A DNA stretch of 64,000 nt from Bdellovibrionales bacterium. Its GTDB lineage: Bacteria; Bdellovibrionota; Bdellovibrionia; Bdellovibrionales; JAMPXM01. The translations under genes were made by a program, and so were the position numbers. Positions 29,767-49,603 of the stretch are shown in pieces (position 1 is the first letter of the stretch; each line of letters starts with the position of its first letter). The stretch is from positions 27,280 to 91,279 of the forward strand of contig JAYUEN010000398.1 in the NCBI GenBank assembly GCA_043739185.1. The letters are read 5' to 3'. The notes beneath the pieces were generated by a model. It ran no database searches, was not told the DNA's origin, and saw only the letters and a list, made by a program, of their open reading frames with translations.

Positions 29767-29781
29767 AGTTGGAGTTAAGAA

Positions 29782-30459: not shown

Positions 30460-30468
30460 AGAGTTTCT

Positions 30469-31782
30469 CTAGTCTGAATCCCGAAGAGCATCAGAAACCT
30501 TCATATATAATGCCCGTCGCACCGGAAAGGCGCAGGCTAAAAGCGAAATAAGAATCAATGTAAAAGTTGAAAATACTATGGTTTTTGGACTAACTGTCAT
30601 CGCAAAGGCAACACTGTCTGACAGCATCCCGAGTTTATAAGGAATTTCAATAGCATTGATTATAAGCGCCAAAAAGTAAGAAAGAAAAACGCCGATCAAT
30701 ACGCCAAAAAAACTCAAGAAAAAAGATTCTGATAGGAATAAAATAAAAATATGTTGAGCGCGAAAGCCCAAGCTCAGTAAGGTTCCGATCTCGCGTGTCC
30801 GTTCAAAGACCAAGCGGTAAAAAGTGGTAACAACTGAAAGGGTTCCAATAAAGATAACCACAACAGTGATAAAATTTCGAAAGACGAAGAGAAAATCAAT
30901 ACTCTTTATATAAAAATCGCCAATGTCAAAATTTCTCCAAGACTTCAAATGTAGAGCGGGAACCTTGGCTTGAACGTACTTGAATTGCGAAATTAAAGTT
31001 GGAATATCCGATTTGTTTTTAAGGCGAATTGAGGTCATTGAAAGACTCTTGGTTTTCATTAAATTTTGGACTAAACTCAAAGGCGCCATAATGAGCCTTT
31101 GATCTAAATCACTAAAGACGCCATCAACAATTCCTACAATTTCAACTTCGGCGGCATTGATTTGGCCAGTTTCAGTCATGAGTGAAATTTGCACGCTTTT
31201 GTGTTCACAATGAAAAGTCCGATTCTTAGCTTCATAGCCATTTTTATTAATTTTGGGATGATAATTTTCGTCCTCTGAGCAGCCGATTATTTCAGCTAGG
31301 CGTCTGCCTACTACAATGATGTGATCCGTTGCGCTACTTTGTTTAAAGGCATCGTCTAATGGGGCTCCAGCTAGTGTATTCCAGCCCCAATAGGGATCGC
31401 GCATTCTGCGTCCCATCTCTGGGTCGTATCCAACTCCTGAAAATATGATTTGGAGGGAGCCTGTATTGAGTGCGCCCGAGAAATTTAAGAAAGGAACCCC
31501 AACGTCTATTTGCCCGCTATGTTCTTTTAAAAATGAGTCGATAGGCCCTTGTTCTTCTATGGTTGTATTGTCTAGCCGACTTTCTTTCCTAATAAGTAAA
31601 TCCCCATACATACTGCGATTTTCATAAGTGCGATCAAACAGAATATTGGTGTCGAAAATATAGGCTTCAAATAAATTAAGCGCAATAAAGCCACTGGCGA
31701 CAGATAAAATAGCCGCAAGAGTTTTTTTACGCGAACTCATTACATTCTTGATCGCAAGCTGAATGATTTTAAAATAAACCAT
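30469..31782 (-). CDS. ABC transporter permease (LolC/E, FtsX-like)
   Basis: One TM, a large periplasmic domain and three TMs; ERTREIGTLLSLGF. Confidence 0.9.
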   Translation of the reverse strand: MVYFKIIQLAIKNVMSSRKKTLAAILSVASGFIALNLFEAYIFDTNILFDRTYENRSMYGDLLIRKESRLDNTTIEEQGPIDSFLKEHSGQIDVGVPFLNFSGALNTGSLQIIFSGVGYDPEMGRRMRDPYWGWNTLAGAPLDDAFKQSSATDHIIVVGRRLAEIIGCSEDENYHPKINKNGYEAKNRTFHCEHKSVQISLMTETGQINAAEVEIVGIVDGVFSDLDQRLIMAPLSLVQNLMKTKSLSMTSIRLKNKSDIPTLISQFKYVQAKVPALHLKSWRNFDIGDFYIKSIDFLFVFRNFITVVVIFIGTLSVVTTFYRLVFERTREIGTLLSLGFRAQHIFILFLSESFFLSFFGVLIGVFLSYFLALIINAIEIPYKLGMLSDSVAFAMTVSPKTIVFSTFTLILISLLACAFPVRRALYMKVSDALRDSD

Positions 31783-31785
31783 AAC

Positions 31786-33177
31786 CTATGCCCTCATCAA
31801 ATCTATGATTTTTTGAAGCATCATTTTTCGAGAAATGATCCAGGTCGTAAGTAAAACTATGATGAGCATCGAAATTAAAACAGAATAAGTATAAATAAAA
31901 GTAGGTTGTAAAACGAATTGCAGGTCATTGGCAAAGCCCGGTATTCGAAAGCGAAAATTCAAATGATTATTTAGGGACTTTAATAAGAAAGCCAAAAAAC
32001 CACCGAAACAAAAACTGACAAATGAAATAATTAAGTACTCAAAAGAAAATAAAATTTGAATTTGTTGGGGGCGAAAACCAATAGAGCGTAGGCTTGCAAT
32101 CTCGGGCTTTCGCTCTAGAAAAGAAATTTGAAGCGAGTTTGCTATTGATAAGATAACCACCCCGCAAACGAGAACCGCGAAAAATGAAATCATCACATAA
32201 ACAAAATTCATAGCGCCTCGGTAAATCTCACTGACTTGTTCTTCGCGATAGCTATGAATCTCAACATTTTGAATATGATTTTGCTGAAGCTCGCGGTTTA
32301 GAGCGGCCTGTAATTTTTCGAGTTCTGAGACCTTCTCTAAAATGACTGCAATTCTTGAAATATGATCAGTCCGTAAGAGGTTCTGCGCGGTTTGAAAAGG
32401 AAGTAGGACTGAGGTTTCATCTGTAAAACTGAACCCGGTAGACATAAGGCCACTGATCGCGGCATCGGTTACGCCCAATCCTCCGTCACTGGCTTGAGCA
32501 AAAATTTGAACAAAGGGATCTTCTGCAATTTTTTTTGCAGAGTCTGGGCTTTTGCAGTCTAAGGCTTGAAGATTTGCGCTTGGTACAATTTCTGTCAGAA
32601 TATTTTGCTTTTTCAAAAGTGAAAAGAGAACCGGACTCATATTTATCGGAACCAAATCAGAATTTCGCGTCCAGAATCCGGCACCACGATCAAACTTTGT
32701 AAGTTCTGGTATTTCTCTTAAAACCTGCGGATGTGAGTAAATCCAGTTGAGATCGGCTGGGTCTACGCCGGTAAACAAGATGGGCAGACTTAGGCACGAA
32801 TTAGTGATCATGGCCTGGCCACTTAAAACCGAAATTACTTTGTCATTTGAATTTAAATTCCGACTCAGAATGTTTTTAATTTTGTCGGCTTCTTCGGCGT
32901 TCAAACTATATTGATTTGGGTTTTGATAATAAAATTTAATCGCATTTTTCTTCCAAAAAGAGAGGTGCCCAACTTGTCTTAGAAAGATACTCTGGGTGGC
33001 TAAATAATCCTCCATGCGAAGCATATAGCCGCCGAGAAGAACCAAACCACAAAAGCCAAAGGATAGGCCTAGGCAAGTAAAAATATGGCGTCTTCTATAG
33101 GTCCAGACATTTCGTGAGGCGAGCTTCCAGATTTTGGGAAGTTTGGAGATTGAATTGCTTTTTTGAATTTCGCTCAA
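31786..33177 (-). CDS. ABC transporter permease (LolC/E, FtsX-like)
   Basis: LASRNVW..RRR; ERKPEIASLRSIGF; same topology as the neighbouring permease. Confidence 0.9.
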   Translation of the reverse strand: MSEIQKSNSISKLPKIWKLASRNVWTYRRRHIFTCLGLSFGFCGLVLLGGYMLRMEDYLATQSIFLRQVGHLSFWKKNAIKFYYQNPNQYSLNAEEADKIKNILSRNLNSNDKVISVLSGQAMITNSCLSLPILFTGVDPADLNWIYSHPQVLREIPELTKFDRGAGFWTRNSDLVPINMSPVLFSLLKKQNILTEIVPSANLQALDCKSPDSAKKIAEDPFVQIFAQASDGGLGVTDAAISGLMSTGFSFTDETSVLLPFQTAQNLLRTDHISRIAVILEKVSELEKLQAALNRELQQNHIQNVEIHSYREEQVSEIYRGAMNFVYVMISFFAVLVCGVVILSIANSLQISFLERKPEIASLRSIGFRPQQIQILFSFEYLIISFVSFCFGGFLAFLLKSLNNHLNFRFRIPGFANDLQFVLQPTFIYTYSVLISMLIIVLLTTWIISRKMMLQKIIDLMRA

Positions 33178-33195: not shown

Positions 33196-33609
33196 CTATA
33201 TTAAAAGTTGAAAGTTCCCGTAACCCATAATTAAAAGCGAGATGGTCCCGCAACTTACGGGAACAACTTCTAAATACTTAAGCGGCAAATAAATTGAGCC
33301 GAGAAATAAAAAACTCGGAACTCCCCACATACAAACTAACCAACAATAACTACCAATCATCTTAAAAGAGTCTGAGATTGGCATGGCATCGATGTATTGG
33401 CCATAGACAATCGAAATGAGTGGCAGAGCAAAGAGAGCAATATGCGCGAGTCGATTCATCCTTCTGGGTAAATCTGTATAATTGTGATGACCGGGGGGCG
33501 TTTTGAATGGACCCGCAAATGACCAAAGGCCTAGGGTTGATCCGGTCAATATTCCCATGATCATAGTAATCCATCCGAGATGAATATTTAAAAGTCCGTA
33601 ATGGGTCAT
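33196..33609 (-). CDS. Small 4-TM membrane protein
   Basis: Four hydrophobic helices; RRMNRLAH motif; first gene of the permease operon. Confidence 0.75.
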   Translation of the reverse strand: MTHYGLLNIHLGWITMIMGILTGSTLGLWSFAGPFKTPPGHHNYTDLPRRMNRLAHIALFALPLISIVYGQYIDAMPISDSFKMIGSYCWLVCMWGVPSFLFLGSIYLPLKYLEVVPVSCGTISLLIMGYGNFQLLI

Positions 33610-34178: not shown

Positions 34179-35066
34179 ATGTCGACCGCAGTTTCAATTA
34201 AGAGTTTGTTAAAAGTTCTCGATTCAAAGAGTCTCAATCATCCAAGAGCAATCGGACGACAAGCAGTGCAAGCCAGTGTTGGCGAATCTGATTGGAATCG
34301 AAATCTTCTTTTCTCAAACGAGCTTCAAAGAAAAATTGACAAACATAAACTTTGTCGGCACCCGCTGATTGGTTTGTTGAGTACTGAAAAGCTCAATGTA
34401 AACGCCACAAAAATTATTCATTTTGAGTTTTCATACGCATTTGCCGAAATATTTACCGACTCTCTTATTCAAGCGATGACAACCTCGGCTTCATTAGAGC
34501 CGCGGCTTGGAGCTATGGGCAAGGTTTCGGCGCGATTTTTACTCCAGCTCAATTTGCTCGATGAATTGGGTTTTAAACCCATGGTAAATGGGTCTGAAGA
34601 CTCTGAATTTTGTGGCAATCCATTTTTAGCCCACTATGTACAATTCAATGAAACAATCGAGGAATTGGGCGGCCTTCATAAAGATATCTTAAATTATAAG
34701 GCGTCGGCAGCAGCCGCGACGGCGCGTAGAACATTTACCGATCATTACAGCGACCACTTGAATCTTACAACCGTGCTCGCAGTTGCAGAGACTGTATTTA
34801 CCCTCTTCGCAGGTCCCTGGGCCAAGAGCGTGAGTTTATCAACTGATATTGATGTGAGTCGAGGTTATCACAAAATTCACGTTGAAGATGACCATGGAGA
34901 ATTTGTTGATGACGATCACTCAGAAGATTCTTGGTATATTTTTCGTCAAGCCGTTGAAGAAAAGGATTTCAAATTGGTAGAAGAAAATATTTTGCAATGG
35001 TTAGACACCTGGTATGACTTTGGCGATGAGGTCATGCACATTGCTCGTCAGCTCTCAAAGAAGTAA
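34179..35066 (+). CDS. Heme-oxygenase-like diiron oxidase (HDO; CADD/PqqC-like fold)
   Basis: HPL near the N-terminus; NLLDELG...AHY, AVAET and YHKIHVEDDH...DDDH fit the E..H / E / H..D..H ligand pattern. Confidence 0.72.
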   Translation: MSTAVSIKSLLKVLDSKSLNHPRAIGRQAVQASVGESDWNRNLLFSNELQRKIDKHKLCRHPLIGLLSTEKLNVNATKIIHFEFSYAFAEIFTDSLIQAMTTSASLEPRLGAMGKVSARFLLQLNLLDELGFKPMVNGSEDSEFCGNPFLAHYVQFNETIEELGGLHKDILNYKASAAAATARRTFTDHYSDHLNLTTVLAVAETVFTLFAGPWAKSVSLSTDIDVSRGYHKIHVEDDHGEFVDDDHSEDSWYIFRQAVEEKDFKLVEENILQWLDTWYDFGDEVMHIARQLSKK

Positions 35067-35084: not shown

Positions 35085-38000
35085 ATGAGCGATCTTCGGG
35101 ATTCTAAAACCTCTTCTGTTGATGAATTGATTGAGCTCATCACTTCAGAAATAGCAACGGTGACGGGCATTCCTGCGTCTAAAATATCAATTGATCAGGG
35201 TTTTATGGAGATGGGAATTGAATCCCTACAGGCCGTAGCGATAATCGAAAATCTTTCATTAAAGCTTCATGAAAACCTAAATGTAGAGTTACTCTTTGAT
35301 CATCCTAATATTCAGAAACTTGCAATACATCTTGAGCTCGAATCAAATTTAAAAGAGCGGAAAATCATAGCCGAACGATCAATATCCCCTGGCGCTGATG
35401 AGCTCTTAAAATCTGAAAAAGAAATCTTTGAAAATACAGATATTTCAATTGTAGGAATGAGCTGTCGCTTTCCTAAAGCCAACGGGCTGCTTGAGTTTTA
35501 TGACCTCCTTTTAAATGGCAGAAGTGGCATTGATAGCATGACAAAAGATAGGCTCAAACTGCACGCTGAACATCGCCAAAAAGAAATGGGTTTTGTCGAA
35601 GCCATTGAGAATTTTGCTTCTGATGCGTTTTCAATCTCTAGTCATGAAGCAAATTTAATGGATCCACAGCAAAGAATGCTGCTCGAAGAATGCAACCGAG
35701 CACTCGAAGATGCAGGCTATACTCCAAAGGATTTGCAAGGATCTCATACCGGAGTTTTCATTGGGGTCAGCAATTCAGACTATGCATTTGAAATCTCAAA
35801 ATCGAGTCGAGTCGATATTTTCACTTCACTAGGAAATGCTCATTCAATAGTCGCAAATCGAATTTCATACTTCTATGATCTGAAGGGTCCAAGTTTAGCC
35901 GTAGATACAGCCTGTTCTTCGTCACTTGTTGCTCTTCATATGGCCGTTCAAAGCTTGGCGCGAAATGAAATCGAAATGGCTATTGTTGGTGGAGTCAATT
36001 CCCTATTGAGTTCCGAAATTACCAATGCTTTTTGGGAAGCGGGTATGCTTTCTCCTGATTCACGTTGTTTTACTTTTTCAAAAGAAGCCAATGGCTATGT
36101 TCGGGGCGAAGGAGTAGGAGTTATTGTCCTTCGTCGAAGTAAGGATATGGTAGGAAACAGCTTTCGCAGTTATGCGAAAATAAAGGCCACAGCAATCAAT
36201 CAAGATGGAAAATCTAGCGGATTGACAGCTCCAAACGGGAGCGCACAAGAAAGCGCGTTGCGAGAAGCACTTTTAAAAGCAAATTTAAATCCTGAAGAAA
36301 TTTCTTACCATGAAGCTCATGGCACGGCCACAGCACTTGGCGATCCGATCGAATTGCTTGCGCTAGAGCGAATTCACAAGCTGCGACTGAAAGATCAGCC
36401 ACTTCTTATTGGATCGGTCAAAACTAATATTGGGCATCTCGAATCTGCAGCTGGTATCGCTTCAGTGATAAAGGTAGCGCTCGGACTTTATTATAAAAAA
36501 ATATTCAAGAATCTGAATTTCAGCGAAATCAATCCGCAGATTAAAAACCGCATTGCGTCTCTTGAACCTGTTTTGCTAAGGCAGGATTGGTCCTCACGTC
36601 ATGGCGAACGACTCTATGCAAGTCTAAGCTCATTCGGATTTGGAGGTACCAATGCCTGTGCAATTCTTGCCGAAGCAGATATGCCATTCCCTCAAACTAA
36701 AACCGACATTGTTGATTCGTTAGATTTGAAAACCGAGAACAAGGGCCACATCGTTTTTGCTTGGTCTGCCAACTCCCAGGCTGCGGTTCGAAATGGAATG
36801 AAAAACTTATTGAATCAAGTTAAATACAAAAGTTGGGATGAAGCAGCCATTTATGCCCAGGCGAGTATTGCAAAGCGAAGGTTTTTCAAAGATCAAATTT
36901 TGGTTAATGTGAGCAGCAAAAAACAGCTGCAAGACTTGTCAGCCCTATTTCAGGATTCATCAATTGACCTGTCGAATATTGAAAATATTCGTGAATTTAA
37001 AAAGCAAAAGCTCGGGAGTAAGCGCATCGCCTTTCTGTTTACAGGTCAAGGCGCTCAATACTCTCAAATGTATTATACATTATATGAAGATGATATACTG
37101 TTTAAGTCATTAGTAGATGAGGCCCTGCAAGAAGCGCAAATCTATTATCCAAAAAATCTCTATCAGGTCTGGACGGATGCACGTTTAGTTTCGGATCTTG
37201 ATCAAACCGACTATTCACAAATCCTTCTCTTTGCGCTGGCTTTAAGCTTTGCCAAATATTTGAAAATCAAATTCAATGTTGAGCCTGAATATTCATTTGG
37301 CCATAGTTTGGGAGAGATTACGGCGGCAGCTTTTGCCGGCGCATTTGATTTGAAGACATCTATTCAGATGGTGGCTTGCCGGGCTCGGCTCATGTGGCAG
37401 ACTCAAGCCGGCGCTATGACGGCTGTCTTTGAAGCCAAAACTCAAATTGAATCTATTCTGATAAAATATGCTATTGAACTAGATATTTCAGCCATCAACG
37501 GGCCAAGATTTATTGTACTGTCAGGCCCAGAGAATGAAATAATCAAACTTGAAACCGGTTGCGACAAAGAAAGAATAAAATATGTTCGCTTGAAACCAAA
37601 GCAAGGCTTTCATTCACGCCTTATGGACCCAATTTTACAGGAATATCAAAGTGCGCTTAATGATTTGAGTTTTGAAGCTTTGAAATCACCGATCGTTTCT
37701 TCTCTTACTGGCGATCTGCTTCCGGAGGGCTTTCATTACAAGCCTGAGTATTGGCTCGAGCAAATGAGAAGGCCTACGCAATTTGATAAGGCGCTGGCTA
37801 CAATGCAAGATTTAAAAGTAACTCACTTTATTGAAATTGGGCCCGAGCCTCAATTGATTGGTATGGCCAAATTAACAGGAAAAAACAAACCGGCAAATTG
37901 GGTTCATTTTTTCGACAAACAACTACTGCGAAAAAGTTTTGTTGAAGCCAGCTTTTTCTTATTTGAAAATGATTTGACTGCTGACGCTGATTTTTTTAAG

Positions 38001-41000
38001 AAGTCACAGATAAATATTGCAAGTTTTCTCCCAAAAACTATTTTGAGCGGCACGGCTCATTGGCACTCATTTGAAGACGAAATGAAACACAAAACGAGGC
38101 AGCACACGGACGCGATCAAATCCAAGGACGCCTTAACTCCGGCTTTCAATCGCAAGGAAAATCAAATGGAATTTTTAAATCCGAATGAAGCTTTACAAGA
38201 ACTAGAAGTGCAGAAAGAACTCGTGCAAATTGTTGCCTCTGTCATGAGAGTTTCGATTCAGGATATATCACTTGATGAAAGCCTAGTCGATATCGGAGCC
38301 GACTCTTTGGTACTCATGAATGCCGTTCAGACTATAAAGGAAACCTATGAAGTATCGATTCCGATTTCGGAAGTCTTCAAAGACCTCAATAATCTAAGGA
38401 AAATTGCGAACTTTATTGTCAACGAATCCCCGGTAATTCAGAGCCGGAATCCGGTTGAAGAATCACTTTCTTCAAGCCTGCCGCAATTCGAAAGTTCAAA
38501 TCTAACGCCTGAAGTGGTCAAGCTCTTTCAAAATCAAATTGCTATTATGAATCGACAACTTGAGGTTTTGGGACTCAATGCAAGCGCTCAAAAGCTCAAT
38601 GTACCAAATCAACAAATATTGCCACCAGAGAAATTAGAAATTGCAAATCTAGGCAAAGAAAAGCGCGGAGTACTTGGCAATTTCAAAAATTTTGCAAACC
38701 TCGAGGCCGAGACCGAATCGGATCGAATGAAGAATAGATTTCTCAATAGAGTCATTGCGGAATTCAACGCCAAGACACCTAAGACAAAAACTCACGTTCA
38801 GAAATATCGCAAACAACTCGCTGATAATCGCGTGAGTGCTGGCTTCAGGCCCAATACAAAGGAAATGATATATCCAATTCATTGTCTCAAGGCTAAAGGA
38901 AGTAAATTTATAGATTTAGACGGGAATGAGTTTACCGATTTTAGTATGGGCTTTGGCGTGAATCTCTTTGGCCATTCACCTGATTTTATAGAGGCAGCCC
39001 TTTTAGAACAAATGAAGAACGGAATGTGTCTGGGGCCGCAGTCATTTTTGGCCGGAGATGTTGCTTCTCAATTGAGTGAATTGACCGGACTTGAACGCGT
39101 GGCATTTGTCAATTCTGGTACCGAAGCAGTTATGACCGCTGTTCGCCTTGCACGCGCCGGTACGAAGCGCTCAAAGATTGTGATTTTTGATGGCTCCTAT
39201 CATGGCCATTTTGATGGTATCCTTGCTCGTCCAAGTCGGAGTTTAAAATCCCATCCGGTGGCGGCCGGAATTTCGGAAAGTCTTTTAGAGGATGTCATTG
39301 TGCTCGAATATGGTAGCGCTCGCTCACTCGAAATAATTGAAGAGATGGGTGAAAATTTGGCAGGAGTCTTGGTTGAACCTGTTCAAAGTCGTTTTCCGGA
39401 ATTTCAACCCCAGGCCTTTTTACAAAAGTTAAGAGAAATTACCAAGCGCAATGGGACAGCATTTATTTGGGATGAAGTGATCACAGGTTTTCGAATTCAT
39501 CCCGGTGGTGCACAAGCTCATTTTGAAATTCAAGCCGATATCGCCACTTACGGAAAAATTCTAGGTGGAGGAATGCCAATTGGTGCGGTGGCTGGCTCTG
39601 CAAAATATTTGGATTTTATTGATGGTGGTCATTGGCAATTTGGAGATCAATCTTATCCGAGTCATGAAATGACTTTTTTTGCGGGAACCTTTTCTAAACA
39701 TCCTTTAGCGATGGCAGCGGCAAATGCAGTACTTTTGAAGCTCAAGCAAGAAGGTAAGGAATTGATCGAGAGCCTAAATGAAAAGACCACTCAACTTTGT
39801 AGAGAATTAAATTCGTATTTTAAAGAACAATATTTGGCTATTGAGCTAAATAATTATGGTTCATTGTTTAGGTTCAAAGCGGCCTTAAATTTAGATTTAT
39901 TTTTTACGCTTTTGAACAGTCGTGGCTTTTATGTTTGGGAGGGCCGAAATCTATTTTTATCAACGGCACATTCGGCAGAAGACATTCAAAATTTCAAGCA
40001 GGCCGTCGTTGACATTACTGGCGAGCTCCTTTCAGAAGGCATCTTAGTCCCGCAAAAGCCAGCTTTGGTTAAGCCCTTAAGCCTCAGTTTGCCTCAAGCT
40101 AGGTTTGCAAATTTAAGTGCGAATCTAGAATTTGGAAATTCAGCAAGTTTGATTTGTGTTAGCGCCAAGGTCAAAGGCTTCTTGGATATTGAGAAGCTTA
40201 AACTTGCTCTGCAGATACTTCAAGATTCGCATGACCTTTTTAATTTAAGAGTCAATATTAACGATAAGCTCCAAGAGTTTTCATCGCTTGCATCTCCTGT
40301 TGATTTTGAATTTTTGAACTACCGATCTGAAAAATCTCCCTGGAAAATATTAGACCAAGAACTAAATATGCTGGCCCAGACAAATTTTGATTTAACCAAA
40401 TCCCCAGGCATTTTGGTGAGGCTATTTGAGGTGGCGGTTGATACTCACGTATTGGCGGTTATTACTCACCATCTGGTATTTGATGGCTGGACCATGACCC
40501 TCTATTTCGAAGAGCTTGCTCGCATTTACAATAGTCTGCTTTTAGGAACTACGCCTGCAAAGAATCAACAATTGAGTTACGAACAATTCCTGAATCAATC
40601 CTCAATGAATAGAGTCGATGAAAAACTACTGAGTGCCAAAAGTTATTGGGAAAACGAATTCGCAGAGATTTTAGGTAACCAAGCAGAAAATTCGGTGGCC
40701 ATTGAAAAAAGCCTAAAGGGACAACGCATCGTTTTTGATCTAGAATTGAAACTTTATAAAGCCCTCAAGCTATGGGCAAGAGAACACAAAATGACCGCGT
40801 TCATGTTTTTATTCGGCTGTTTTGCAAAAGCACTTATGACTCGTCTTCATAAAAATGAAATTGTAATTGGCATTCCGGTCGCGAACCGCGATTATCCGGG
40901 CTCAGAAAAAATGTTTGGGAATTGTGTGAATTTACTTCCGGTAAAAATTCAAAATAGCGAGCCCAATGTTGAAGCTTATTTTGCCTATGTAAAATCAAAA

Positions 41001-41366
41001 ATTTTAAACGCCTATCAAAATATGAATTATCCGTATGAAAAATTAATTGCAAGTGCAGGGCCCCTGTTTGATACTTACTTTAATTTGGAGCCCACCTCTG
41101 ATCTGCCAGAATTTGATCAGGCGAGCCTCATTATTCATCCATTTCCAATTGCGGCAAGTGAATATAAACTCATGTTGAATATCACTGATTTCGAACACTA
41201 CTATCATTGTGAATTCGATTTTCAAAATGCAAAATTAAGCGATGACGAAATTCTAGAAATGATTGATGATTTAAAGGCGCAAATCAAAGCGGTCGTCACT
41301 GCGAAATCTGTGGCGGGGCCCAAGCAGAATACGCTGAGCGCAAGTGAAGAAGATTTGACGCCTTAA
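35085..41366 (+). CDS. Hybrid type I PKS: ACP-KS-AT-ACP-aminotransferase-condensation domain
   Basis: ACP1 GIESL; KS DTACSSS, EAHGT, NIGHLE; AT GQGAQ, GHSLG, GFHS; ACP2 GADSL; class III PLP aminotransferase DEVITGFR, YGKILGGG; C domain HHLVFDG. Confidence 0.95.
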   Translation: MSDLRDSKTSSVDELIELITSEIATVTGIPASKISIDQGFMEMGIESLQAVAIIENLSLKLHENLNVELLFDHPNIQKLAIHLELESNLKERKIIAERSISPGADELLKSEKEIFENTDISIVGMSCRFPKANGLLEFYDLLLNGRSGIDSMTKDRLKLHAEHRQKEMGFVEAIENFASDAFSISSHEANLMDPQQRMLLEECNRALEDAGYTPKDLQGSHTGVFIGVSNSDYAFEISKSSRVDIFTSLGNAHSIVANRISYFYDLKGPSLAVDTACSSSLVALHMAVQSLARNEIEMAIVGGVNSLLSSEITNAFWEAGMLSPDSRCFTFSKEANGYVRGEGVGVIVLRRSKDMVGNSFRSYAKIKATAINQDGKSSGLTAPNGSAQESALREALLKANLNPEEISYHEAHGTATALGDPIELLALERIHKLRLKDQPLLIGSVKTNIGHLESAAGIASVIKVALGLYYKKIFKNLNFSEINPQIKNRIASLEPVLLRQDWSSRHGERLYASLSSFGFGGTNACAILAEADMPFPQTKTDIVDSLDLKTENKGHIVFAWSANSQAAVRNGMKNLLNQVKYKSWDEAAIYAQASIAKRRFFKDQILVNVSSKKQLQDLSALFQDSSIDLSNIENIREFKKQKLGSKRIAFLFTGQGAQYSQMYYTLYEDDILFKSLVDEALQEAQIYYPKNLYQVWTDARLVSDLDQTDYSQILLFALALSFAKYLKIKFNVEPEYSFGHSLGEITAAAFAGAFDLKTSIQMVACRARLMWQTQAGAMTAVFEAKTQIESILIKYAIELDISAINGPRFIVLSGPENEIIKLETGCDKERIKYVRLKPKQGFHSRLMDPILQEYQSALNDLSFEALKSPIVSSLTGDLLPEGFHYKPEYWLEQMRRPTQFDKALATMQDLKVTHFIEIGPEPQLIGMAKLTGKNKPANWVHFFDKQLLRKSFVEASFFLFENDLTADADFFKKSQINIASFLPKTILSGTAHWHSFEDEMKHKTRQHTDAIKSKDALTPAFNRKENQMEFLNPNEALQELEVQKELVQIVASVMRVSIQDISLDESLVDIGADSLVLMNAVQTIKETYEVSIPISEVFKDLNNLRKIANFIVNESPVIQSRNPVEESLSSSLPQFESSNLTPEVVKLFQNQIAIMNRQLEVLGLNASAQKLNVPNQQILPPEKLEIANLGKEKRGVLGNFKNFANLEAETESDRMKNRFLNRVIAEFNAKTPKTKTHVQKYRKQLADNRVSAGFRPNTKEMIYPIHCLKAKGSKFIDLDGNEFTDFSMGFGVNLFGHSPDFIEAALLEQMKNGMCLGPQSFLAGDVASQLSELTGLERVAFVNSGTEAVMTAVRLARAGTKRSKIVIFDGSYHGHFDGILARPSRSLKSHPVAAGISESLLEDVIVLEYGSARSLEIIEEMGENLAGVLVEPVQSRFPEFQPQAFLQKLREITKRNGTAFIWDEVITGFRIHPGGAQAHFEIQADIATYGKILGGGMPIGAVAGSAKYLDFIDGGHWQFGDQSYPSHEMTFFAGTFSKHPLAMAAANAVLLKLKQEGKELIESLNEKTTQLCRELNSYFKEQYLAIELNNYGSLFRFKAALNLDLFFTLLNSRGFYVWEGRNLFLSTAHSAEDIQNFKQAVVDITGELLSEGILVPQKPALVKPLSLSLPQARFANLSANLEFGNSASLICVSAKVKGFLDIEKLKLALQILQDSHDLFNLRVNINDKLQEFSSLASPVDFEFLNYRSEKSPWKILDQELNMLAQTNFDLTKSPGILVRLFEVAVDTHVLAVITHHLVFDGWTMTLYFEELARIYNSLLLGTTPAKNQQLSYEQFLNQSSMNRVDEKLLSAKSYWENEFAEILGNQAENSVAIEKSLKGQRIVFDLELKLYKALKLWAREHKMTAFMFLFGCFAKALMTRLHKNEIVIGIPVANRDYPGSEKMFGNCVNLLPVKIQNSEPNVEAYFAYVKSKILNAYQNMNYPYEKLIASAGPLFDTYFNLEPTSDLPEFDQASLIIHPFPIAASEYKLMLNITDFEHYYHCEFDFQNAKLSDDEILEMIDDLKAQIKAVVTAKSVAGPKQNTLSASEEDLTP

Positions 41367-41536: not shown

Positions 41537-42580
41537 CTATTTGCGACAATCTAAAATATGATTGTCGAAGACGCTGCCTATCAAAATATGATTTGGGTCG
41601 ATTGCAAGGGCGACACTTGCGGCCGATATTTCTTCGCCACTATTTTCATAGATGACTTTTTGAATAGGCTTTTCTCCCTGCCAATTTTCGATTGAAATAA
41701 TTTTGGAGGGCGCAATCTTTCGACGCTGCTCTGACATTTTTCTCAATCTTAAAAGATTTGGATGAACTGCGACCAAAGCATGATTGTCACGGACGGTGAT
41801 ATTGTCGGGTGCGCCCTCTAAAGATAAAGTGTTTTTTCTTCGAATTTCAGAATTGAATCTTTCATATATCAGTACTTTTTTTGAAAGCATGGCGGCAGCT
41901 ATCAAATATCTTTGATCGGATGAAACGGCAATTCCATTAGCGAAAAAAATGTGCTCGTCGACCTTTGATGCGATTTTTTCATTTTGAAAAAAGCTGATAT
42001 AGCCACTTGCTATATAGGTATAGGGTTCAATCATCTTTCGTAACGGGTCCGGGCTGCCAAAGTCGCTGGTGATATAAAAGCTTTCGGTTGAGACCAAGGC
42101 AAGATCGTTTGCGGACTGTAAGAGAGGGTGTTCAATGCTTTTAATATATTTGAGTTCATTGGTACTTTGCCAATTGAAAACCTCAAGCGTGGTGTGATGT
42201 TTATCGCGATGATTGATTGCATAAACTAAGATTTGATCCTCAGTTTTAAAGAGATCAATGCCATGCGGATGAAAGTTAAAACTTAATTTGAGCTTTTTGA
42301 TCAAAGGAAAAGCTTGGCGTGTTTTCAGATCATATTGAAAAAGGTCACCTTGAGCCAAATCGCCTCTAAGGTCAGAACTAATCAGCACATGGTCTTCCCC
42401 TGGGATTTGAACCATGTCTTCAGGGCCTTCTATGATTGAGCTTGATTTGCAATCGCCAAATTTAATGTCGCTAATTTCCCTAAAGTATCCGGCATCTGCG
42501 ACGAGGTAGAGAATGTATCCGCTGAGAAACATTAATAAAAGTACGAGAGCCTTAAGCATTTTTACCCTGCTTAAGCTCAA
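41537..42580 (-). CDS. Paraoxonase/arylesterase-like six-bladed beta-propeller (SMP-30/strictosidine synthase superfamily)
   Basis: N-terminal anchor; GPEDM, FHPHGID, ANDL, FANGIAVS and PDNI motifs; N- and C-terminal Cys. Confidence 0.82.
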   Translation of the reverse strand: MSLSRVKMLKALVLLLMFLSGYILYLVADAGYFREISDIKFGDCKSSSIIEGPEDMVQIPGEDHVLISSDLRGDLAQGDLFQYDLKTRQAFPLIKKLKLSFNFHPHGIDLFKTEDQILVYAINHRDKHHTTLEVFNWQSTNELKYIKSIEHPLLQSANDLALVSTESFYITSDFGSPDPLRKMIEPYTYIASGYISFFQNEKIASKVDEHIFFANGIAVSSDQRYLIAAAMLSKKVLIYERFNSEIRRKNTLSLEGAPDNITVRDNHALVAVHPNLLRLRKMSEQRRKIAPSKIISIENWQGEKPIQKVIYENSGEEISAASVALAIDPNHILIGSVFDNHILDCRK

Positions 42581-44264
42581 AGGATTTTACGACCGCTGCT
42601 CGTTTAACCTTTTGGCTACTGGTGAGTTCGAGACTCGCTTCTTGAAATTTGAATTCATTTGGCCGTTTGAAAGCTGAAAGACTTTCGCAGAGTGATTTTA
42701 GATCTGCAGTAATTTGGTTTTTCAATTGTGGATTTTTGTAAGCCTCTTGAAAGCGCTCTTGAAGATTGATGATTGCGATGATTTTATCGCCTGCAGCTTG
42801 GGCCGTAATGCTAAAAACACAGACATTTTTAACATAAGGGGAGGTCACTAAAATTTCTTCGACTTCTTCGGGTTGGAGTTTTTTGCCGCTTGATAAAACA
42901 ATCATACTCTTTATTCGGCCCACGACGTAAAGGTATCCATCTGAATCGATGACACCCAAGTCTCCAGTTTTAAACCACCCATCTGCGGTTTTGAGTTCAT
43001 TTGTTAACGCTGAATTTTTAAAATAGGATTCGAAGACATGAGGTCCCTTTGTCCAAATTTCGCCACTTTCTTCATTCTGTTCAGCACTTGAATCTTTCAC
43101 TATTTTCAATTCGACACCAGGTAGGGCTTTTCCGGTTGAGCCATTTCGCGAGGCATTTGGAGTATTGAGACTGATGACCGGCCCCGTTTCAGTTAAGCCA
43201 TAACCATTGTATACAGGCCAGCCAAATGCTTGAAAGAAGTCCGCGGTTTCTTTACTTAAATTAGCTCCACCAGAAATGAAGAACTCAATTGTTTCGCCTA
43301 AGCCAGCCCGAACCTTTTTGAAAAAAAGTATTGCTATTAACTCTGATTTGAGACGTTTGTTGAGAAACAATACGGCCGAAAATAATAATTTTTGAAATTT
43401 CGGCAAAGCTTCGACTTTGGCTAATATTCCATTTCGGATTAACGTAAGGATCAGTGGCACAACAATGAGGCGGCTTACTCTTCTTTCTTTAATAAGTAGA
43501 CTAATACTTTGCGGTGATAAATTTTGCGTGAGACAAACCTCTTGGCCCATCCAAAGAATAGGAAACATTGAGCCCGACAAGCCATAGATGTGATTGAGTG
43601 GCAATATTGAAAGAGCTGCACTGCGACCCGCTTTAATAGGGAAGGCTTGTTTGATCGCATGAATTTGAAAAAATATTGATGAGAAGGAGATATGAACTGC
43701 TTTTTGGTTTCCTGAAGTTCCAGAAGTATAGACAATCAATCGAGATGATTTGTGCGCGTCTGGGTCTTCATTTTGAGAAGCTGAAATCGATTGAACTAAG
43801 ACACGTGGATAATTAGAAATTTGAGAGAATCTAATAATAGATGTCTGCAAACGCTTCACCGGCTTCAGACTATTGGCAAATTGAAATAGGTCGTCTGAAA
43901 CAAATAAATGTGTGGCCTCAAAGTGTTCAAGTAGTTCGGAGGTTTCTAATTGACTGAGTTTAATGTCCAAGATGCAAACGCAGGCACCTTTTAAAAGGCT
44001 AGCAAAGAAATTCTTGAGTAAATCAAGAGAAGTGGGACCTAGAAAGGCGACCCTTGAACTCGCATTAATTCCGGGAATACTTTGCCGACGAAAAAAATCT
44101 TGAATTGAAGTTAAAAAGTCATTTCCGGTAATACTATTTATACTTGGGGCTTGGGTTGAGTCGGTAGGTGAGTTCTCTAAAATACTGAGTATATTTTCTG
44201 AGCCTGCTTGCCGGCAGACATTCTCAAGAAATTCTTTGATGGATTCGGGTGCATGTTCGAGCAT
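42552..44264 (-). CDS. Long-chain fatty-acid--CoA/ACP ligase (AMP-binding enzyme)
   Basis: YTSGTSGNQK, GYGLTETGP, GWFKTGDLG and GRIKSMIVLSSGK motifs. Confidence 0.92.
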   Translation of the reverse strand: MLEHAPESIKEFLENVCRQAGSENILSILENSPTDSTQAPSINSITGNDFLTSIQDFFRRQSIPGINASSRVAFLGPTSLDLLKNFFASLLKGACVCILDIKLSQLETSELLEHFEATHLFVSDDLFQFANSLKPVKRLQTSIIRFSQISNYPRVLVQSISASQNEDPDAHKSSRLIVYTSGTSGNQKAVHISFSSIFFQIHAIKQAFPIKAGRSAALSILPLNHIYGLSGSMFPILWMGQEVCLTQNLSPQSISLLIKERRVSRLIVVPLILTLIRNGILAKVEALPKFQKLLFSAVLFLNKRLKSELIAILFFKKVRAGLGETIEFFISGGANLSKETADFFQAFGWPVYNGYGLTETGPVISLNTPNASRNGSTGKALPGVELKIVKDSSAEQNEESGEIWTKGPHVFESYFKNSALTNELKTADGWFKTGDLGVIDSDGYLYVVGRIKSMIVLSSGKKLQPEEVEEILVTSPYVKNVCVFSITAQAAGDKIIAIINLQERFQEAYKNPQLKNQITADLKSLCESLSAFKRPNEFKFQEASLELTSSQKVKRAAVVKSFELKQGKNA

Positions 44265-44430: not shown

Positions 44431-44560
44431 GACACACTGAACCCCGAGACCGAAACAAGTAAGACACTTGATTGTCGCTGCTGCCGTCACTGATTTGAAG
44501 CCAAGAGTTGAAGCAGGACCCTTTAAAAAAGTGACAGAGCCAGTACAGCGACTAACTTTT
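44431..44560 (+). repeat. Degenerate dispersed repeat, copy D
   Basis: gacacactgaa, ccgagac, cgctgctgccgt, actgattt, caagagttgaa and gacagagcc blocks shared with copies B/C. Confidence 0.7.
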
Positions 44561-44615
44561 GGTCAGTGGTGCCAATCCAAAAGATTGGTATTGGTTGTGC
44601 ATATATATTCCTCGA

Positions 44616-46367
44616 ATGAAGAAGCTATTTATATTCAAACTCATCTTTGTCCTATGTCTTGCGACCATTTGGTCGAGCAATAGCTTCTCTGCTGATGCCT
44701 GCCCGGCACTTTTCTTCAAATCACCATTTCAAACGAAGAGTACTTTCGATTCAAAAGGTCGGATCAAGATTCATTTGGCCCCGGGAGCTCTCGAGAGATT
44801 GAGCGGCGGCATCTTAAAAAATTTAATTGAGAAATTATCTGTTAAGGGAGCACTGAGCGGAGAATTTTCACCACAGACCCTCAACAAAGAAGTGGTCATG
44901 GGAGACTCTAGACTTCTCAAGCTGCTTGATGCAGAGTTCATGAGACCATTGGCGAAAATATTTCATTCAACTGAGCTGAAGGATTTGCTAGGTCAATTTG
45001 ATCCACGAATAAAGTTGGGAAAGAGCGAGTTTCGAATTGCGATTAGTGATTTAAGCCTTTCGCCAGCGGATGATTTAGTTGAAAGGCTCGGACTATTAAA
45101 AGATTTTAATCACGGAAGCATAGTCAATGTTGAGATTCAGCTTGAATCCTTAGACGCTCATGCAAGTGAGTCACACTTTGATATCGTACGTGATAAAGTC
45201 GGTCGAATAGGTTTTAAAGATCTTCGGGTTCAATCACGAGGCGCGATCTCGCTTAGTATTCCCGTATTCTTGGGTGTACATAAGAGCGGATTACCTGACT
45301 TTCAAATTCTAGCGGTCGATGGATTGGATCCAGAACAGTTAAGTGTGCAAGTGAAAAACTTGTTGCTTCCGAAAATTCAAATAAAAATTGATGGAGAAAC
45401 GATTGAGGTTTCGCCGCCACCACAAGCTCTAGAAAACCTACAGACCAGTATCATTGATGCGGTCACAAATCCTGCGGTTGTTGCGCAAGTGAATGCGCAA
45501 ATTGTTGATTTTTTAAATCATATCGTTGCCAAACTAATACAATCAAAATTTACTGCTGAGCGCGGGATCAGGCTTGCTCTTGAAATTGATCCAGAGATGT
45601 TCCCGGCAAAAAATTCATCACGCAAGAAATCTGAACCAATCGTCATGAGCGTAAACCTATTGCCCCTGTCTATTTCTTCTGATCATGCAAGTTTAGCTGT
45701 GGGAATTGATATGCAGACGGATGCGAAAACCGACAAAAAAGTTGTCGCGGTTCAAGAGCTTGGGGAGTGTCCTTTTGCGTGCACGCAATATGACGTCGCG
45801 GTCGCATTGAATCGTGATCTGTTGCAGGATATATTCAATCAAGCATACAAAAAGAATCTTATTAAAAATATTGCCACTCCACAGGGAGGCATTTTAGTTT
45901 TAGAGTCACCGCAAATCGAGTATGCGAGTTCAAAGGCTAACGACAAAAAATCGGCATTTATCAAGCTTAAGCTTAAACTCAAGCCTGAAAATATGCCATC
46001 ATTGTCAGGAGCTTTATTAAAAGGCGACTTCTCGCTATCAGTAAATGTATTGGTTCAGATTTCGCCCGAGAAGTCGGGAAAGGCAGTGAAATTTGAAGTC
46101 ATCGAAGTCAGCGCAGATAAACTCGCTATCGATGAAACTAGTCTCAGAACAGGTGCTCGGCTTTTCGCAGCCTTCGTACCTAAGACTTTAAAAATGGGAA
46201 TGCAAGATGTCGCATTGGGAATTTTAAACCAAAGCCTGATGAGTGGTGACAAGAGTGCGATGCGATTTGCAATTCCCTCTGAAATTGCCGAGTTGATGGG
46301 GCCGCTAAAGGTCGTAGGCCTTAACTTTGACGAAAACCAAAATCTTTATTTATTGCTAAAGCAATAG
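44616..46367 (+). CDS. Secreted hypothetical protein, possibly BPI/LBP (TULIP)-like
   Basis: Signal peptide, then ACPALF; long strand-helix architecture. Confidence 0.65.
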   Translation: MKKLFIFKLIFVLCLATIWSSNSFSADACPALFFKSPFQTKSTFDSKGRIKIHLAPGALERLSGGILKNLIEKLSVKGALSGEFSPQTLNKEVVMGDSRLLKLLDAEFMRPLAKIFHSTELKDLLGQFDPRIKLGKSEFRIAISDLSLSPADDLVERLGLLKDFNHGSIVNVEIQLESLDAHASESHFDIVRDKVGRIGFKDLRVQSRGAISLSIPVFLGVHKSGLPDFQILAVDGLDPEQLSVQVKNLLLPKIQIKIDGETIEVSPPPQALENLQTSIIDAVTNPAVVAQVNAQIVDFLNHIVAKLIQSKFTAERGIRLALEIDPEMFPAKNSSRKKSEPIVMSVNLLPLSISSDHASLAVGIDMQTDAKTDKKVVAVQELGECPFACTQYDVAVALNRDLLQDIFNQAYKKNLIKNIATPQGGILVLESPQIEYASSKANDKKSAFIKLKLKLKPENMPSLSGALLKGDFSLSVNVLVQISPEKSGKAVKFEVIEVSADKLAIDETSLRTGARLFAAFVPKTLKMGMQDVALGILNQSLMSGDKSAMRFAIPSEIAELMGPLKVVGLNFDENQNLYLLLKQ

Positions 46368-46526
46368 GCCGCTCTGATTGCGAATTCGACAGACTCGAGT
46401 CGGGCTCCAGGCTATTGGCCTAGTTCAAACGCCAAATGTAAAAGTTTAAAAACGGCGACTCTAGCTCTTTAAATTGGCTGCCGATAAATCTCAAATGGGC
46501 TGCGAATCGAGAGTGAGGATGTTCAA

Positions 46527-47903
46527 TTGTTATTTTTTAAGAAATATTTAGAGCGCGATAAAGAGTCTTGTCTTATCGAGCGCTATTTTCTGACGATTGC
46601 AATTTTGATACTTGCTACACTCAATGTCTTTGCTGAAGATTGCCAAAAGACACCCGATCAGATTCTTGCAGAAATGCAAAGCATAGCAAATTCTACATCT
46701 AGAAAATGGCAGACGACCAATGGCTTTTATGATCGCGAATTTATCTTAGATAAGGAGAGCGCAGACTACGCAAAATTGAAAAATTCTTGCGCCCGAAAAA
46801 TATCAGACTCAAAACTTGCAAAATGTTTTGAAAATATGGACAGATTTATTGATCAGCTTGAAAAAGTAAAATCACCTCATCACGCAAACGGCTTTTTATT
46901 AAATGATCAAGAATATAAAGGGAGTCGAAGTAAAGCAAACTTTGAATTGCCCAAAGAGCTAATGAATGGGATTCCTGCAAATTACCAAGAAATTGCAAAA
47001 GCAAACAACTGGATATTTTATGAGTATTCTTCAAGTTTGGTTGTGGGTGCAGGTGATTCTAAAAGGCGCTTGCTTTTTGTAGTAGAAGAAGCGCCGCTAG
47101 CGAAATGGATTCAATTTACACTTCCGGATCAGTGGCCTCAAAATATTGGACAAGAAAAAATGGTTGATATCATAAGTATCGACTCTTCAAGGAGTAAAGC
47201 GGCCCCACTTGTTTCGTATATTGAATATTCAAAAGAAGAGAGTGCAAATTGGGAGAGTGTCAATTCTAAATGTCTAAAATGTCACGCAAACGGTCTGCGT
47301 CCGCTTCGGCCGGCAAGGGGTTCTGAGGGGGCGCATAATACGAGTTACTACGAATTGAATGCTAAAATTTCAAAATATTCTGGGAAATATGATATTCGAC
47401 CTCTGCTCCATAACGAGGATTTCGGGCCCGCATTTGGAGCTAGCCAAAAATGTACAAGTTGCCATTCGAATTCATTAATTTTGAAGACCAATTATGGGCA
47501 AATTCATGGGGGCTACTCAAAAGATGCGCTTTATAGCAAAATGGTAAGAGAACTACAAATGCCGCCAGGTGTTTTGGCTCGTTCACAATACAGTGATTTG
47601 TCAAAGGCCCTTTCTCAGTTTTCAGATCTGAAGGCGGATGAAAAGAAAGGATTTCGCCAAATCAAATCTTTGTCCGCGCCAGAGGTATTGCAATTTATGA
47701 TAGACAATAAAAAAATTAGTACTGCGTTGTATGAAAAGGCAAAAGATCAGCTCGATCAAGCAACTGCCGAGGCAAAAGCAAACTATGAAATGCTGATCGA
47801 AAACTACAAAATAGAATTAAGTGAATGGTTAAGCGGATCAGATAACAAGCAATGCAAAATTAAAGGCCAGGTTCATGCGAAGCCAAATAGGGCCTCTCAT
47901 TAG
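46527..47903 (+). CDS. Secreted diheme cytochrome c-like protein (start uncertain)
   Basis: Two CxxCH motifs (CLKCH, CTSCH), distal MPP, hydrophobic leader; GCCGATAA at 46480-46487. Confidence 0.7.
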   Translation: MLFFKKYLERDKESCLIERYFLTIAILILATLNVFAEDCQKTPDQILAEMQSIANSTSRKWQTTNGFYDREFILDKESADYAKLKNSCARKISDSKLAKCFENMDRFIDQLEKVKSPHHANGFLLNDQEYKGSRSKANFELPKELMNGIPANYQEIAKANNWIFYEYSSSLVVGAGDSKRRLLFVVEEAPLAKWIQFTLPDQWPQNIGQEKMVDIISIDSSRSKAAPLVSYIEYSKEESANWESVNSKCLKCHANGLRPLRPARGSEGAHNTSYYELNAKISKYSGKYDIRPLLHNEDFGPAFGASQKCTSCHSNSLILKTNYGQIHGGYSKDALYSKMVRELQMPPGVLARSQYSDLSKALSQFSDLKADEKKGFRQIKSLSAPEVLQFMIDNKKISTALYEKAKDQLDQATAEAKANYEMLIENYKIELSEWLSGSDNKQCKIKGQVHAKPNRASH

Positions 47904-48031
47904 AGTGATGCCAGGGTCAGTCTATTTTCGCGTTAAAAAAGCTTGAATTAAAACTTCATATTCTTCTTGGCACTTGCTCGCAGTGTCGGTATGCTTCAGA
48001 CCAGATTTAAACATTTTCTGTAGGGAGCTAT

Positions 48032-48436
48032 ATGAAAAATTTATTATTATTTGTAGTCATTTCTTTTCTTTTTGTTTTGCCAAAAGCTTATGCTGGTTTA
48101 GGTTCAACTTCAGGATCTACTTCAGGCAGTTGTTCAAATTCAATTTCACAACTAGGATATTTTTATGCATATACATATCAATACGCCTATATATACAATG
48201 GGATTTTGGGATCTGAAAGTCACAGTTTTAGCTTCTCAGGTTTTCTCGCGGATATGAAGGACGCTAAGATTGTTGGAGCTAACGAAAAGTATGTTGTTTA
48301 TCGCTCACAACATGGGCGAGCACTTGACCTAGCGGTTCCCTTTCAGAGCGGCGCCGGTTTATTTGTGAAGTATGTTGAGAGCACTGATTTTCCTGGTGAA
48401 GGCAAATCTGCCTGGACAAAACTGTGTAGCTATTGA
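48032..48436 (+). CDS. Small secreted hypothetical protein
   Basis: Signal peptide ending AYA, GS-rich linker, GGGAG RBS. Confidence 0.7.
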   Translation: MKNLLLFVVISFLFVLPKAYAGLGSTSGSTSGSCSNSISQLGYFYAYTYQYAYIYNGILGSESHSFSFSGFLADMKDAKIVGANEKYVVYRSQHGRALDLAVPFQSGAGLFVKYVESTDFPGEGKSAWTKLCSY

Positions 48437-48627
48437 TTTAAAGGTGAATCAACTCAAATCTCAAATTGAAATGCATACAATATAATGAAATGAACAAGAC
48501 TATGCATTTTCTAAAATTGACCTGAGATTACCAATATATAATTCAACTGGTTATTCCGAATTTCAAAATAGAATTGCGATTATTCTCAAATTGAATCAAT
48601 CAAAGTCATTCAGAGCCCATTAATTCT

Positions 48628-48729
48628 TGGCATCCTCTTTGCAAATTTCTTAGTTGTTCAAAGATTGATTTTTAAAGAGGGGATTCAATGAAGTCATTTA
48701 TTTTGTTTAGTGCCTTTAGCATCGTGTAG
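48628..48729 (+). pseudogene. Sigma54 motif and RBS followed by a truncated signal-peptide ORF (gene remnant)
   Basis: TGGCAT-CCTCT-TTGCA at 48628-48643; GAGGGG; ATG at 48688 gives MKSFILFSAFSIV*. Confidence 0.45.
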
Positions 48730-48937
48730 TAATACGGGATGCTGTGATTCTGCAGGCGATGGCTCATTGTAAACAAATTCAGTAGATGTTGTTTATTATG
48801 ATCAAGTCTAAATATGAGTTTATGAATTCAACACTTTTTGATAACGAGCTCCTATTTAGTATTCGAGCTTTGGTCGATAATGAATAAAGAGAACTTTAAC
48901 GCTTAAACTTAGCTTGAGAAAAAAAATAGTGAAAGCA

Positions 48938-49597: not shown

Positions 49598-49603
49598 GCC
49601 CTA

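Follow-up and report, generated by a model that had tools for sequence, protein, structure and literature searches.

The 64,000-nt stretch of a Bdellovibrionales genome examined here (the window, to whose positions all coordinates refer) carries on its forward strand a gene for a 2093-aa megasynthase (35085-41366). A domain search resolved the protein as ACP1-KS-AT-ACP2-AMT-C: a loading acyl carrier protein (ACP1, 35115-35336, with its serine in GIESL), a ketosynthase (KS) and a malonyl-type acyltransferase (AT) without ketoreductase (KR), dehydratase or enoylreductase domains (35436-37886), a second carrier (ACP2, 38217-38423, motif GADSL), a class III aminotransferase (AMT) of the MycA type that retains its pyridoxal phosphate lysine (38757-40034), and a terminal condensation (C) domain of the Iso6 clade described below (40083-41309, aa 1667-2088, Pfam E 1.9e-50). 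All active-site motifs were intact (GIESL, DTACSSS, HEAHGT, GHSLG, GFHS, GADSL and TYGK), and the AT motifs GHSLG and FH agree with the malonate consensus in Supporting Information (SI) Table S16 of PMC9298251. Within the C domain, HHLVFDG lies at aa 1795-1801 (40467-40487) and FNLEP at 41079-41093, and a TAA stop codon (41364-41366) directly ends the open reading frame (ORF). The initial annotation had described a C domain after the aminotransferase, an intact HHLVFDG motif and then a stop codon, and both the domain search and the motif positions bear this out.

An ORF scan of the window covered 45 of the 59 ORFs of at least 100 aa; the 14 left out were short, most of them overlapping longer genes. 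Among the 45, no match was found to the peptidyl carrier protein (PCP), thioesterase (TE), reductase (R), KR or phosphopantetheinyl transferase (PPTase) families, and neither an acyl-CoA dehydrogenase nor a desaturase was found. The claim that the window holds no adenylation (A), PCP, TE, R, KR or PPTase gene stood for the last five families but needs amendment for the first, as an adenylate-forming enzyme of the acyl-CoA-ligase type is encoded on the reverse strand at 42552-44264 (PF00501, E 2e-48). It is not an amino-acid A domain, and is proposed to be the loader of ACP1. A terminator scan gave nothing exceeding shuffled sequence.

The position of the C domain among its relatives was examined in phylogenetic trees built without references for Cy, VibH or SgcC5. 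One tree, of 205 C domains, united 71 terminal post-AMT domains (65 of them distinct) in a single clade with support of 0.999. An IQ-TREE analysis of 60 domains gave a bootstrap of 100 for 26 of the 28 sampled clade members, the window domain and those of iso-like loci included, and of 78 for all 28; it placed the clade as sister to the C domains that follow AMT in the ItuA/MycA and McyE layouts. An ending after the C domain is common to all 65 distinct relatives, and the end of the window megasynthase is therefore not a truncation. A truncated or split nonribosomal peptide synthetase (NRPS) was likewise rejected for the window: four of 75 domains from proteins ending in AMT-C (P0056, P0063, P0073 and P0099) resemble the products of split genes and fell among elongating domains in the 205-domain tree, and the window domain is not one of them. 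An AMT-C-C-A layout considered for relatives was also rejected, the relatives being AMT-C-A-T-C.

The clade has residues of its own. The second His, the Asp and the Gly of HHxxxDG are kept in all 65 distinct members, at pairwise identities down to about 20-25%, and a glutamate (Glu2026) is found in 65/65, compared with 3% of 58 elongating post-AMT C domains. Mapped onto a solved structure, Glu2026 sits just ahead of the conserved FDL strand. Elongating C domains have RHExLRT, QxRLW and YN motifs that are decayed in the clade, and the DxxxxD motif of Cy domains is absent from the window domain, which has HHxxxDG instead. A third His directly before HHxxxDG is what we take to be the mark of beta-lactam-forming C domains of the NocB type; this residue is Thr in the window domain and HHH occurs in no clade member. 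From these trees and residues the window domain belongs to a dedicated terminal clade, for which Glu2026 and FNxEP are usable as a practical marker, and it is a real domain that looks catalytic by sequence.

The gene just upstream of the megasynthase (34179-35066, forward strand) encodes a heme-oxygenase-like diiron enzyme (HDO). Sequence searches of Pfam, NCBIfam and the PDB gave it no name, and it was assigned from a fold match and a conserved His/Glu set. The predicted model (pLDDT 86) has the seven-helix heme-oxygenase fold with conserved His/carboxylate ligands; it matched HrmI with a Z score of 21.9 (root-mean-square deviation (rmsd) 2.7, 220 aligned), CADD with 21.2, and FlcD and BesC with 20.3. 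Residues E129, H152, E204, H231 and H234 are present in 44/44 distinct sequences and H247 in 43/44. The fold and ligand set are like those of the N-oxygenases HrmI/BelK, RohS and SznF, at a structural identity of 11-19%; those enzymes are described as acting on free amino acids or heterocycles (PMC13108848), whereas the window HDO would probably act on a carrier-bound amine. It is proposed here to be an N-oxygenase. An Acinetobacter plasmid encodes a relative of 35% identity (L075:7974-8831) that stands alone, without a polyketide synthase (PKS), next to a TetR regulator.

Both the C domain and the HDO have counterparts in the myxofacycline pathway. The iso1-9 cluster described by Popoff et al. 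(2021; PMC9298251) from Myxococcus xanthus Mx x48 and Stigmatella spp. comprises iso2 (FAAL-dehydrogenase-ACP, FAAL being a fatty acyl-AMP ligase), iso3 (desaturase), iso4 (TenA/PqqC-like oxidase), iso5 (KS-AT) and iso6 (ACP-AMT-C without an A domain), followed by iso7-9. Gene inactivation and heterologous expression tie these genes to isoxazole products in that report, which hypothesizes transamination, oxime formation by Iso4 and cyclization by the Iso6 C domain, and calls the latter possibly a novel clade. Disruption of iso9 led to release of truncated acids (myxofacyclines 1a-7a), i.e., without the Iso9 TE (PMC9298251).

The gene order of the iso cluster was found again in locus L068. The iso6 primer matches L068 DNA with 2 mismatches (0/100 shuffles), the L068 HDO gene has the 843-bp length of iso4, and translation of the iso4 primers places them at residues 11-16 and 191-197 of the L068 HDO, a spacing equivalent to the 583-bp amplicon of the SI of PMC9298251. 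With the L068 C domain as query, the matches included P0548 (QKW94304.1) from M. xanthus, which at 1095 aa (3288 bp) has the exact length of Iso6 in SI Table S15 and carries the primer peptide; the same search returned the cluster holding WP_143901701.1, the closest iso6 homologue according to the SI of PMC9298251. In a tree of 231 C domains, the window domain and P0548 (Iso6) fell in one clade of 97 with support of 0.997, all terminal after AMT, and the two have 14 of 14 signature positions in common, Glu2026 among them. The window C domain is thereby identified as a homologue of Iso6. At 37% identity to the L068 HDO, the window enzyme is assigned to the Iso4 family, through this orthologue and not through the Iso4 sequence itself.

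The two systems share a KS-AT without KR, an ACP-AMT-C without an A domain, a C domain from one clade with matching signature residues, an Iso4-family HDO directly upstream, and an adenylating enzyme that would load a fatty acid onto the loading ACP. The window megasynthase has the architecture of Iso5 (KS-AT) and Iso6 (ACP-AMT-C) fused, with an N-terminal loading ACP. In contrast to iso, the window line stops at the C domain and has no Iso3, Iso7, Iso8, Iso9, acyl-CoA dehydrogenase, desaturase or hotdog TE, and its ligase is free-standing and CoA-ligase-like, with no FAAL-dehydrogenase-ACP starter protein (Iso2). Where the Iso6 C domain is followed by the Iso7 ACP, the Iso8 A domain and the Iso9 reducing module with its TE, the window C domain is followed by a lactonase and the ligase on the opposite strand. 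The window cluster also has, in addition to the iso set, this paraoxonase-like lactonase, a heme-protein-like membrane protein and an exporter.

The distribution of the cluster was then surveyed. A C-domain search of 301 genomes gave five strong non-self matches, all five at loci with an HDO gene, a small membrane gene and a ligase; the four genomes with weaker matches had ordinary NRPS genes. Across 401 Bdellovibrionota genomes, the nine best C scores fell in the same nine genomes (the source included) that held the membrane protein and a strong HDO match, in a count where the profiles were built in part from some of these genomes and close relatives are not independent samples; a tenth had a weaker HDO relative and no C match. 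An HDO-family search yielded loci from genomes (13) and metagenomes (36), at which presence of the HDO is thus by construction. Cluster types were counted over records with visible AMT and C domains, with L026, L027, L029 and L031, which repeat other DNA, counted once, and with contigs or flanks that end before the C domain dropped.

Three types were distinguished. The Bdellovibrionota type (12 records including the window) has the membrane protein in 12, the ligase in 12, the paraoxonase-like gene in 11, a type II TE in 9 and a PPTase in 7; in the record without the paraoxonase-like gene the contig stops 430 bp past the stop codon. No TE was found in the window, L013 or L038. The statement that the megasynthase has no thioesterase partner holds for the window but not for the 9 Bdellovibrionota-type records with a type II TE. 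A search for a TE of the cluster type elsewhere in the source genome gave at best 117-134 bits, where an unrelated TE scored 114 and cluster TEs outside the model scored 79-292 (79 being a contig-end fragment). The FAAL-fused type (12 records, of which ten are closely related) has the membrane protein in 11 and the paraoxonase-like gene in 11, with a TE in 0/12 within at most 2 kb downstream. It is flanked by a KS, presumably FabY-like, and a ferredoxin-type reductase, and its proteins cluster with named proteins of Serratia plymuthica, the Enterobacter cloacae complex, S. fonticola and Photorhabdus. In the Enterobacterales cassette (L047, L048, L049, L055-L059, L064 and L071) the order is AraC/DJ-1 regulator, KS, membrane protein, HDO, FAAL-ACP-KS-AT-ACP-AMT-C, lactonase and ferredoxin-NAD(P)H reductase; in L055 the megasynthase is split within the AT domain. 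The iso-like type (5 records) has neither the membrane protein nor the paraoxonase-like gene in the DNA covered, and 4/5 records have parts of the set of FAAL-dehydrogenase-ACP, desaturase or further PKS. No A-T module follows the C domain in any protein of the three types. Cyanobacterial members (P0102 and P0114) are known from the C domain only.

Several loci depart from these layouts. In L017 (3548-8111) two fatty acid desaturases, a cyclopropane-synthase-like methyltransferase and a flavin oxidoreductase stand between the membrane gene and the HDO gene, and may modify the starter fatty acid. In L014 (7474-9105) a tryptophan-halogenase-family gene and another gene lie between megasynthase and lactonase. 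The ACP-AMT-C protein of L070 (1-13241) clusters with Pseudomonas proteins, has Asn for the first His of its motif and is preceded by a multi-module PKS; a gene without an assigned family, an HDO, a ligase and a short-chain dehydrogenase/reductase follow it. A second recurring Bdellovibrionota hybrid (L020:7127-19998 and L022:6511-18250) is arranged as A-T-KS-AT-T-AMT and then (T)-C-(T)-C-A-T-TE, with C domains outside the terminal clade.

As the window C domain and HDO are homologous to Iso6 and Iso4, the nucleophile for the C domain is most likely the chain's own oxidized nitrogen. It is considered probable that the C domain is an N-O heterocyclase of the Iso6 type, acting on the ACP2-bound chain, and not a ligase for an outside partner. 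In the proposed route, the ligase would adenylate a fatty acid and load it onto ACP1, as the existence of fused FAAL-ACP1 forms suggests. The KS and AT, whose motifs are intact, would extend it with malonate. ACP2 would then carry a 3-oxoacyl chain or, if there are two rounds or the starter is itself 3-oxo, a 3,5-dioxoacyl chain. The AMT would convert this to the 3-amino chain; C3 amination by such an AMT is known for MycA (PMC3870968, PMC11751314). The HDO would then oxidize the carrier-bound amine to a hydroxylamine or oxime, as is proposed for Iso4, and the C domain would steer the N-OH oxygen into closure of a five-membered ring. Anatomy, homology, co-occurrence and the absent NRPS partner are what the analysis supplies, and from these we infer all of the chemistry.

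The oxygen of a C3 oxime can reach either the C5 ketone or the C1 thioester with equal ring size. Attack on the C5 ketone, with loss of water, would give a (5-alkylisoxazol-3-yl)acetyl chain, a carrier-tethered isoxazole like that proposed in the myxofacycline pathway, which a type II TE or hydrolysis would free in the manner of myxofacyclines 1a-7a. The presence of a TE in 9/12 Bdellovibrionota-type records and the FabY-like KS of the FAAL-fused type fit such an (alkylisoxazolyl)acetic acid product, which we put forward tentatively. Attack on the C1 thioester would combine ring closure and release in one step, giving a 3-alkylisoxazol-5-one or an isoxazolidin-5-one; outside the cytoplasm the lactonase could then open this lactone-like ring, either as self-protection or to mature the product. 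The lack of a downstream module, the TE-free loci and the restriction of the lactonase to types without Iso9 fit this second outcome, which is offered just as tentatively. No description of thioester release as a 3-alkylisoxazol-5-one by oxime-oxygen attack was found in the open-access literature searched. In either case the product would be exported through the ABC/LolA or MMPL module.

Several points weigh against cyclization by the C domain. The HrmI fold match is nearly tied with those of CADD, FlcD and BesC, and the fold does not separate HDO reactions, of which many besides N-oxygenation are known (PMC13108848); related HDOs also occur without any PKS, on the Acinetobacter plasmid and in G436. 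Direct identity between the window and Iso6 C domains is only 24%, and three of the four iso primers, with as many as 3 mismatches allowed, found no match in L068 DNA. The Iso6 C-domain role is itself a published hypothesis, and the iso knockouts are single crossovers, for which polar effects are possible (PMC9298251). The window has no dehydrogenase, desaturase or Iso7-9, and a 3,5-dioxo chain would therefore need an iterative KS or a 3-oxo starter. Formation of an isoxazolylacetic acid would moreover require a TE, of which the window has none, unless hydrolysis serves.

The alternative that survives best is release of the chain by the C domain onto a free common metabolite (an amine, diamine or alcohol), the N-O ring having formed spontaneously beforehand. 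The HHxxxDG motif of the C domain is canonical and the window has no TE. The fungal enzyme TwmB reportedly has a terminal, amide-forming C domain. Glidonin C13, VibH and SchH are line-terminal or free-standing C domains that need no TE and take a free amine, putrescine in the case of C13 (PMC10587159); the trees included no references of this kind, and VibH ranked low among the solved C domains in the searches. In the myxadazoles, a similar isoxazole building block, an isoxazole fatty acid, is joined to a benzimidazole from another pathway (PMC8868522, PMC8948627, PMC11610982). However, Iso6, of the same clade and with the same signature residues, passes its chain to Iso9 in a pathway that ends in free acids (PMC9298251); no gene supplying a nucleophile is conserved in the loci, and the HDO and the kinship to Iso6 would go unexplained. 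We consider this reading unlikely. The initial annotation had named the C domain as the release enzyme, with a free amine or alcohol as one possible nucleophile, and left the neighboring HDO gene out of account. Catalysis is supported by the conservation of the motif His and Asp in 65/65, and release features in one of the two leading versions of N-O cyclization; the proposed nucleophile is disfavored, both by the homology to Iso6 and Iso4, which points to the chain's own nitrogen, and by the lack of a conserved gene to supply an amine or alcohol.

Compounds of the 3-oximino or 3-hydroxylamino acyl kind close a five-membered N-O ring readily, which favors a C domain serving as a scaffold, as a gatekeeper or as a plain thioester hydrolase, with ring closure of the oxime being spontaneous. 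The decay of the RHExLRT, QxRLW and YN motifs and the release of truncated myxofacyclines without the Iso9 TE (PMC9298251) are in keeping with so passive a role. It is nevertheless improbable, given the retention of the second His, the Asp and the Gly in 65/65 members despite pairwise identities of about 20-25%, and the gain of a new invariant Glu.

It had also been suggested that the C domain acylates the chain with a second fatty acid. A 3-amino or 3-hydroxylamino group on ACP2 would receive an ACP1-bound acyl chain, and a TE would release a ceramide-like, ornithine-lipid-like or hydroxamate product. The one protein has two ACPs, lipid-type exporters (LolA-like or MMPL) adjoin the cluster, 9/12 Bdellovibrionota-type records have a type II TE, and one variant has desaturases and a cyclopropane-synthase-like gene. 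However, ACP1 is accounted for as the loading carrier by the 12 records with fused FAAL-ACP1, there is no TE in the window, L013 or L038, and iso-type clusters, with the same C clade and ACP1 on a separate protein, give single-chain products (PMC9298251). A two-chain product is very unlikely.

A partner NRPS was sought in the source genome (540 contigs, 97.65% complete) and in five relatives. No amino-acid A domain scored above cut-off in the source genome, and 5/5 genomes were without one. In the relatives, which include the single-contig genome G055, the megasynthase C domain was the sole match in 5/5, and G090 has three carrier domains, two of them within the megasynthase. The source genome has one further C domain, free-standing and beside an unrelated PKS on contig C258. 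It was rejected as a partner, as a different PKS is adjacent, it forms a long branch outside the clade, and it scores 86 bits against 523. That PKS locus (C258:678-14548) also holds a candidate carbamoyltransferase-like gene, so labeled from its N-terminus. A trans-acting NRPS or PCP that takes the chain, in the role that ItuA/MycA give to the PCP behind their first C domain, is suggested by the sister position of the clade to the ItuA/MycA and McyE domains, by the fragmented assembly and by further carrier domains in it, but is nearly excluded by these searches, which agree with the initial annotation that the chain has no NRPS partner.

Downstream of the megasynthase, the ligase gene lies at a distance of about 1.2 kb; it is present in 12/12 Bdellovibrionota-type records and replaced by the fused FAAL in 12 others. 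The lactonase (41537-42580, reverse strand; PON1 match, E 2e-29) is a paraoxonase-like calcium enzyme with an N-terminal hydrophobic anchor. It keeps the positions equivalent to PON1 E53, H115, H134, N168, N224, D269 and H285, which we take to be the calcium ligands and the catalytic His pair. On the other side of the HDO gene, an export module (27710-33177) comprises a LolA-like protein, a probable outer-membrane protein, an ABC ATPase and two FtsX-type permeases; in some relatives an MMPL transporter takes its place.

The 137-aa membrane protein (33196-33609, reverse strand) belongs to no Pfam family and was not named by Pfam, NCBIfam or PDB sequence searches. Its predicted four-helix model (pLDDT 96) resembles styrene oxide isomerase and heme-copper oxidase repeats: the top Foldseek hit was the isomerase structure 8PNU (E 0.026, TMq 0.72), with no sequence-level match (12-13% identity), and a wide structure search gave Z 11.4 (rmsd 2.9, 130 aligned), tied with the oxidase repeats. 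The isomerase is a four-helix fold of similar size, and H56 of the window protein lies near the place of its heme ligand H58 (PDB 8PNU; PMC11374702). R50, R53 and H56 are invariant in 83 sequences. Two distant relatives (P0481 and P0406) are fusions, one with an AurF-like diiron domain and the other with an ACP, and many proteins of 390-430 aa hold two or three repeats of the family. Dysidazirine and azirinomycin are compounds of the 2H-azirine-2-carboxylate type, and conversion of isoxazoles to azirines is iron-catalyzed chemistry. An isoxazolone, once released, might conceivably be rearranged at its N-O ring by the membrane protein acting as a heme-iron Lewis acid, giving a 3-alkyl-2H-azirine-2-carboxylate or a Beckmann product, with the lactonase for self-protection. 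This is doubtful; if true, it would be a reactive-lipid pathway common to predatory bacteria, Serratia and Enterobacter.

Loading of a fatty acid, one ketide extension and a class III AMT giving a 3-aminoacyl thioester are shared with the MycA/ItuA loaders of mycosubtilin and iturin and with McyE-type KS-AT-ACP-AMT-C-A proteins. The C domains of those systems hand the chain to a PCP or aminoacyl-PCP (PMC11751314), whereas nothing follows the window C domain, whose clade has its own residues. What was known before is the iso-type core. Neither its stand-alone form, accompanied by lactonase, membrane protein and exporter, nor the spread of that form to Bdellovibrionota, Enterobacterales and cyanobacteria was found in the open-access literature searched, subscription papers lying outside the search. 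Assembly-line isoxazole formation has been proposed but, in the literature read, not demonstrated. Here the myxofacycline core is reduced to one megasynthase, one oxygenase and one ligase, so that the roles of the HDO and the C clade are directly testable. The analysis also offers a product class for orphan clusters of Bdellovibrionota and of cultured Serratia plymuthica, Enterobacter cloacae complex and Photorhabdus, in strains of which the megasynthase is annotated merely as a PKS or an aminotransferase, and the two added genes (lactonase and membrane protein) suggest chemistry absent from the myxobacterial pathway.

Elsewhere in the window, positions 44559-62636 hold two DUF4423 regulators and a row of proteins that lack annotation and are probably secreted; this stretch is not conserved next to homologous clusters. 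A mevalonate pathway operon (a type 2 IDI-like FMN enzyme, HMG-CoA reductase, a decarboxylase and a kinase) lies at 6343-11579.

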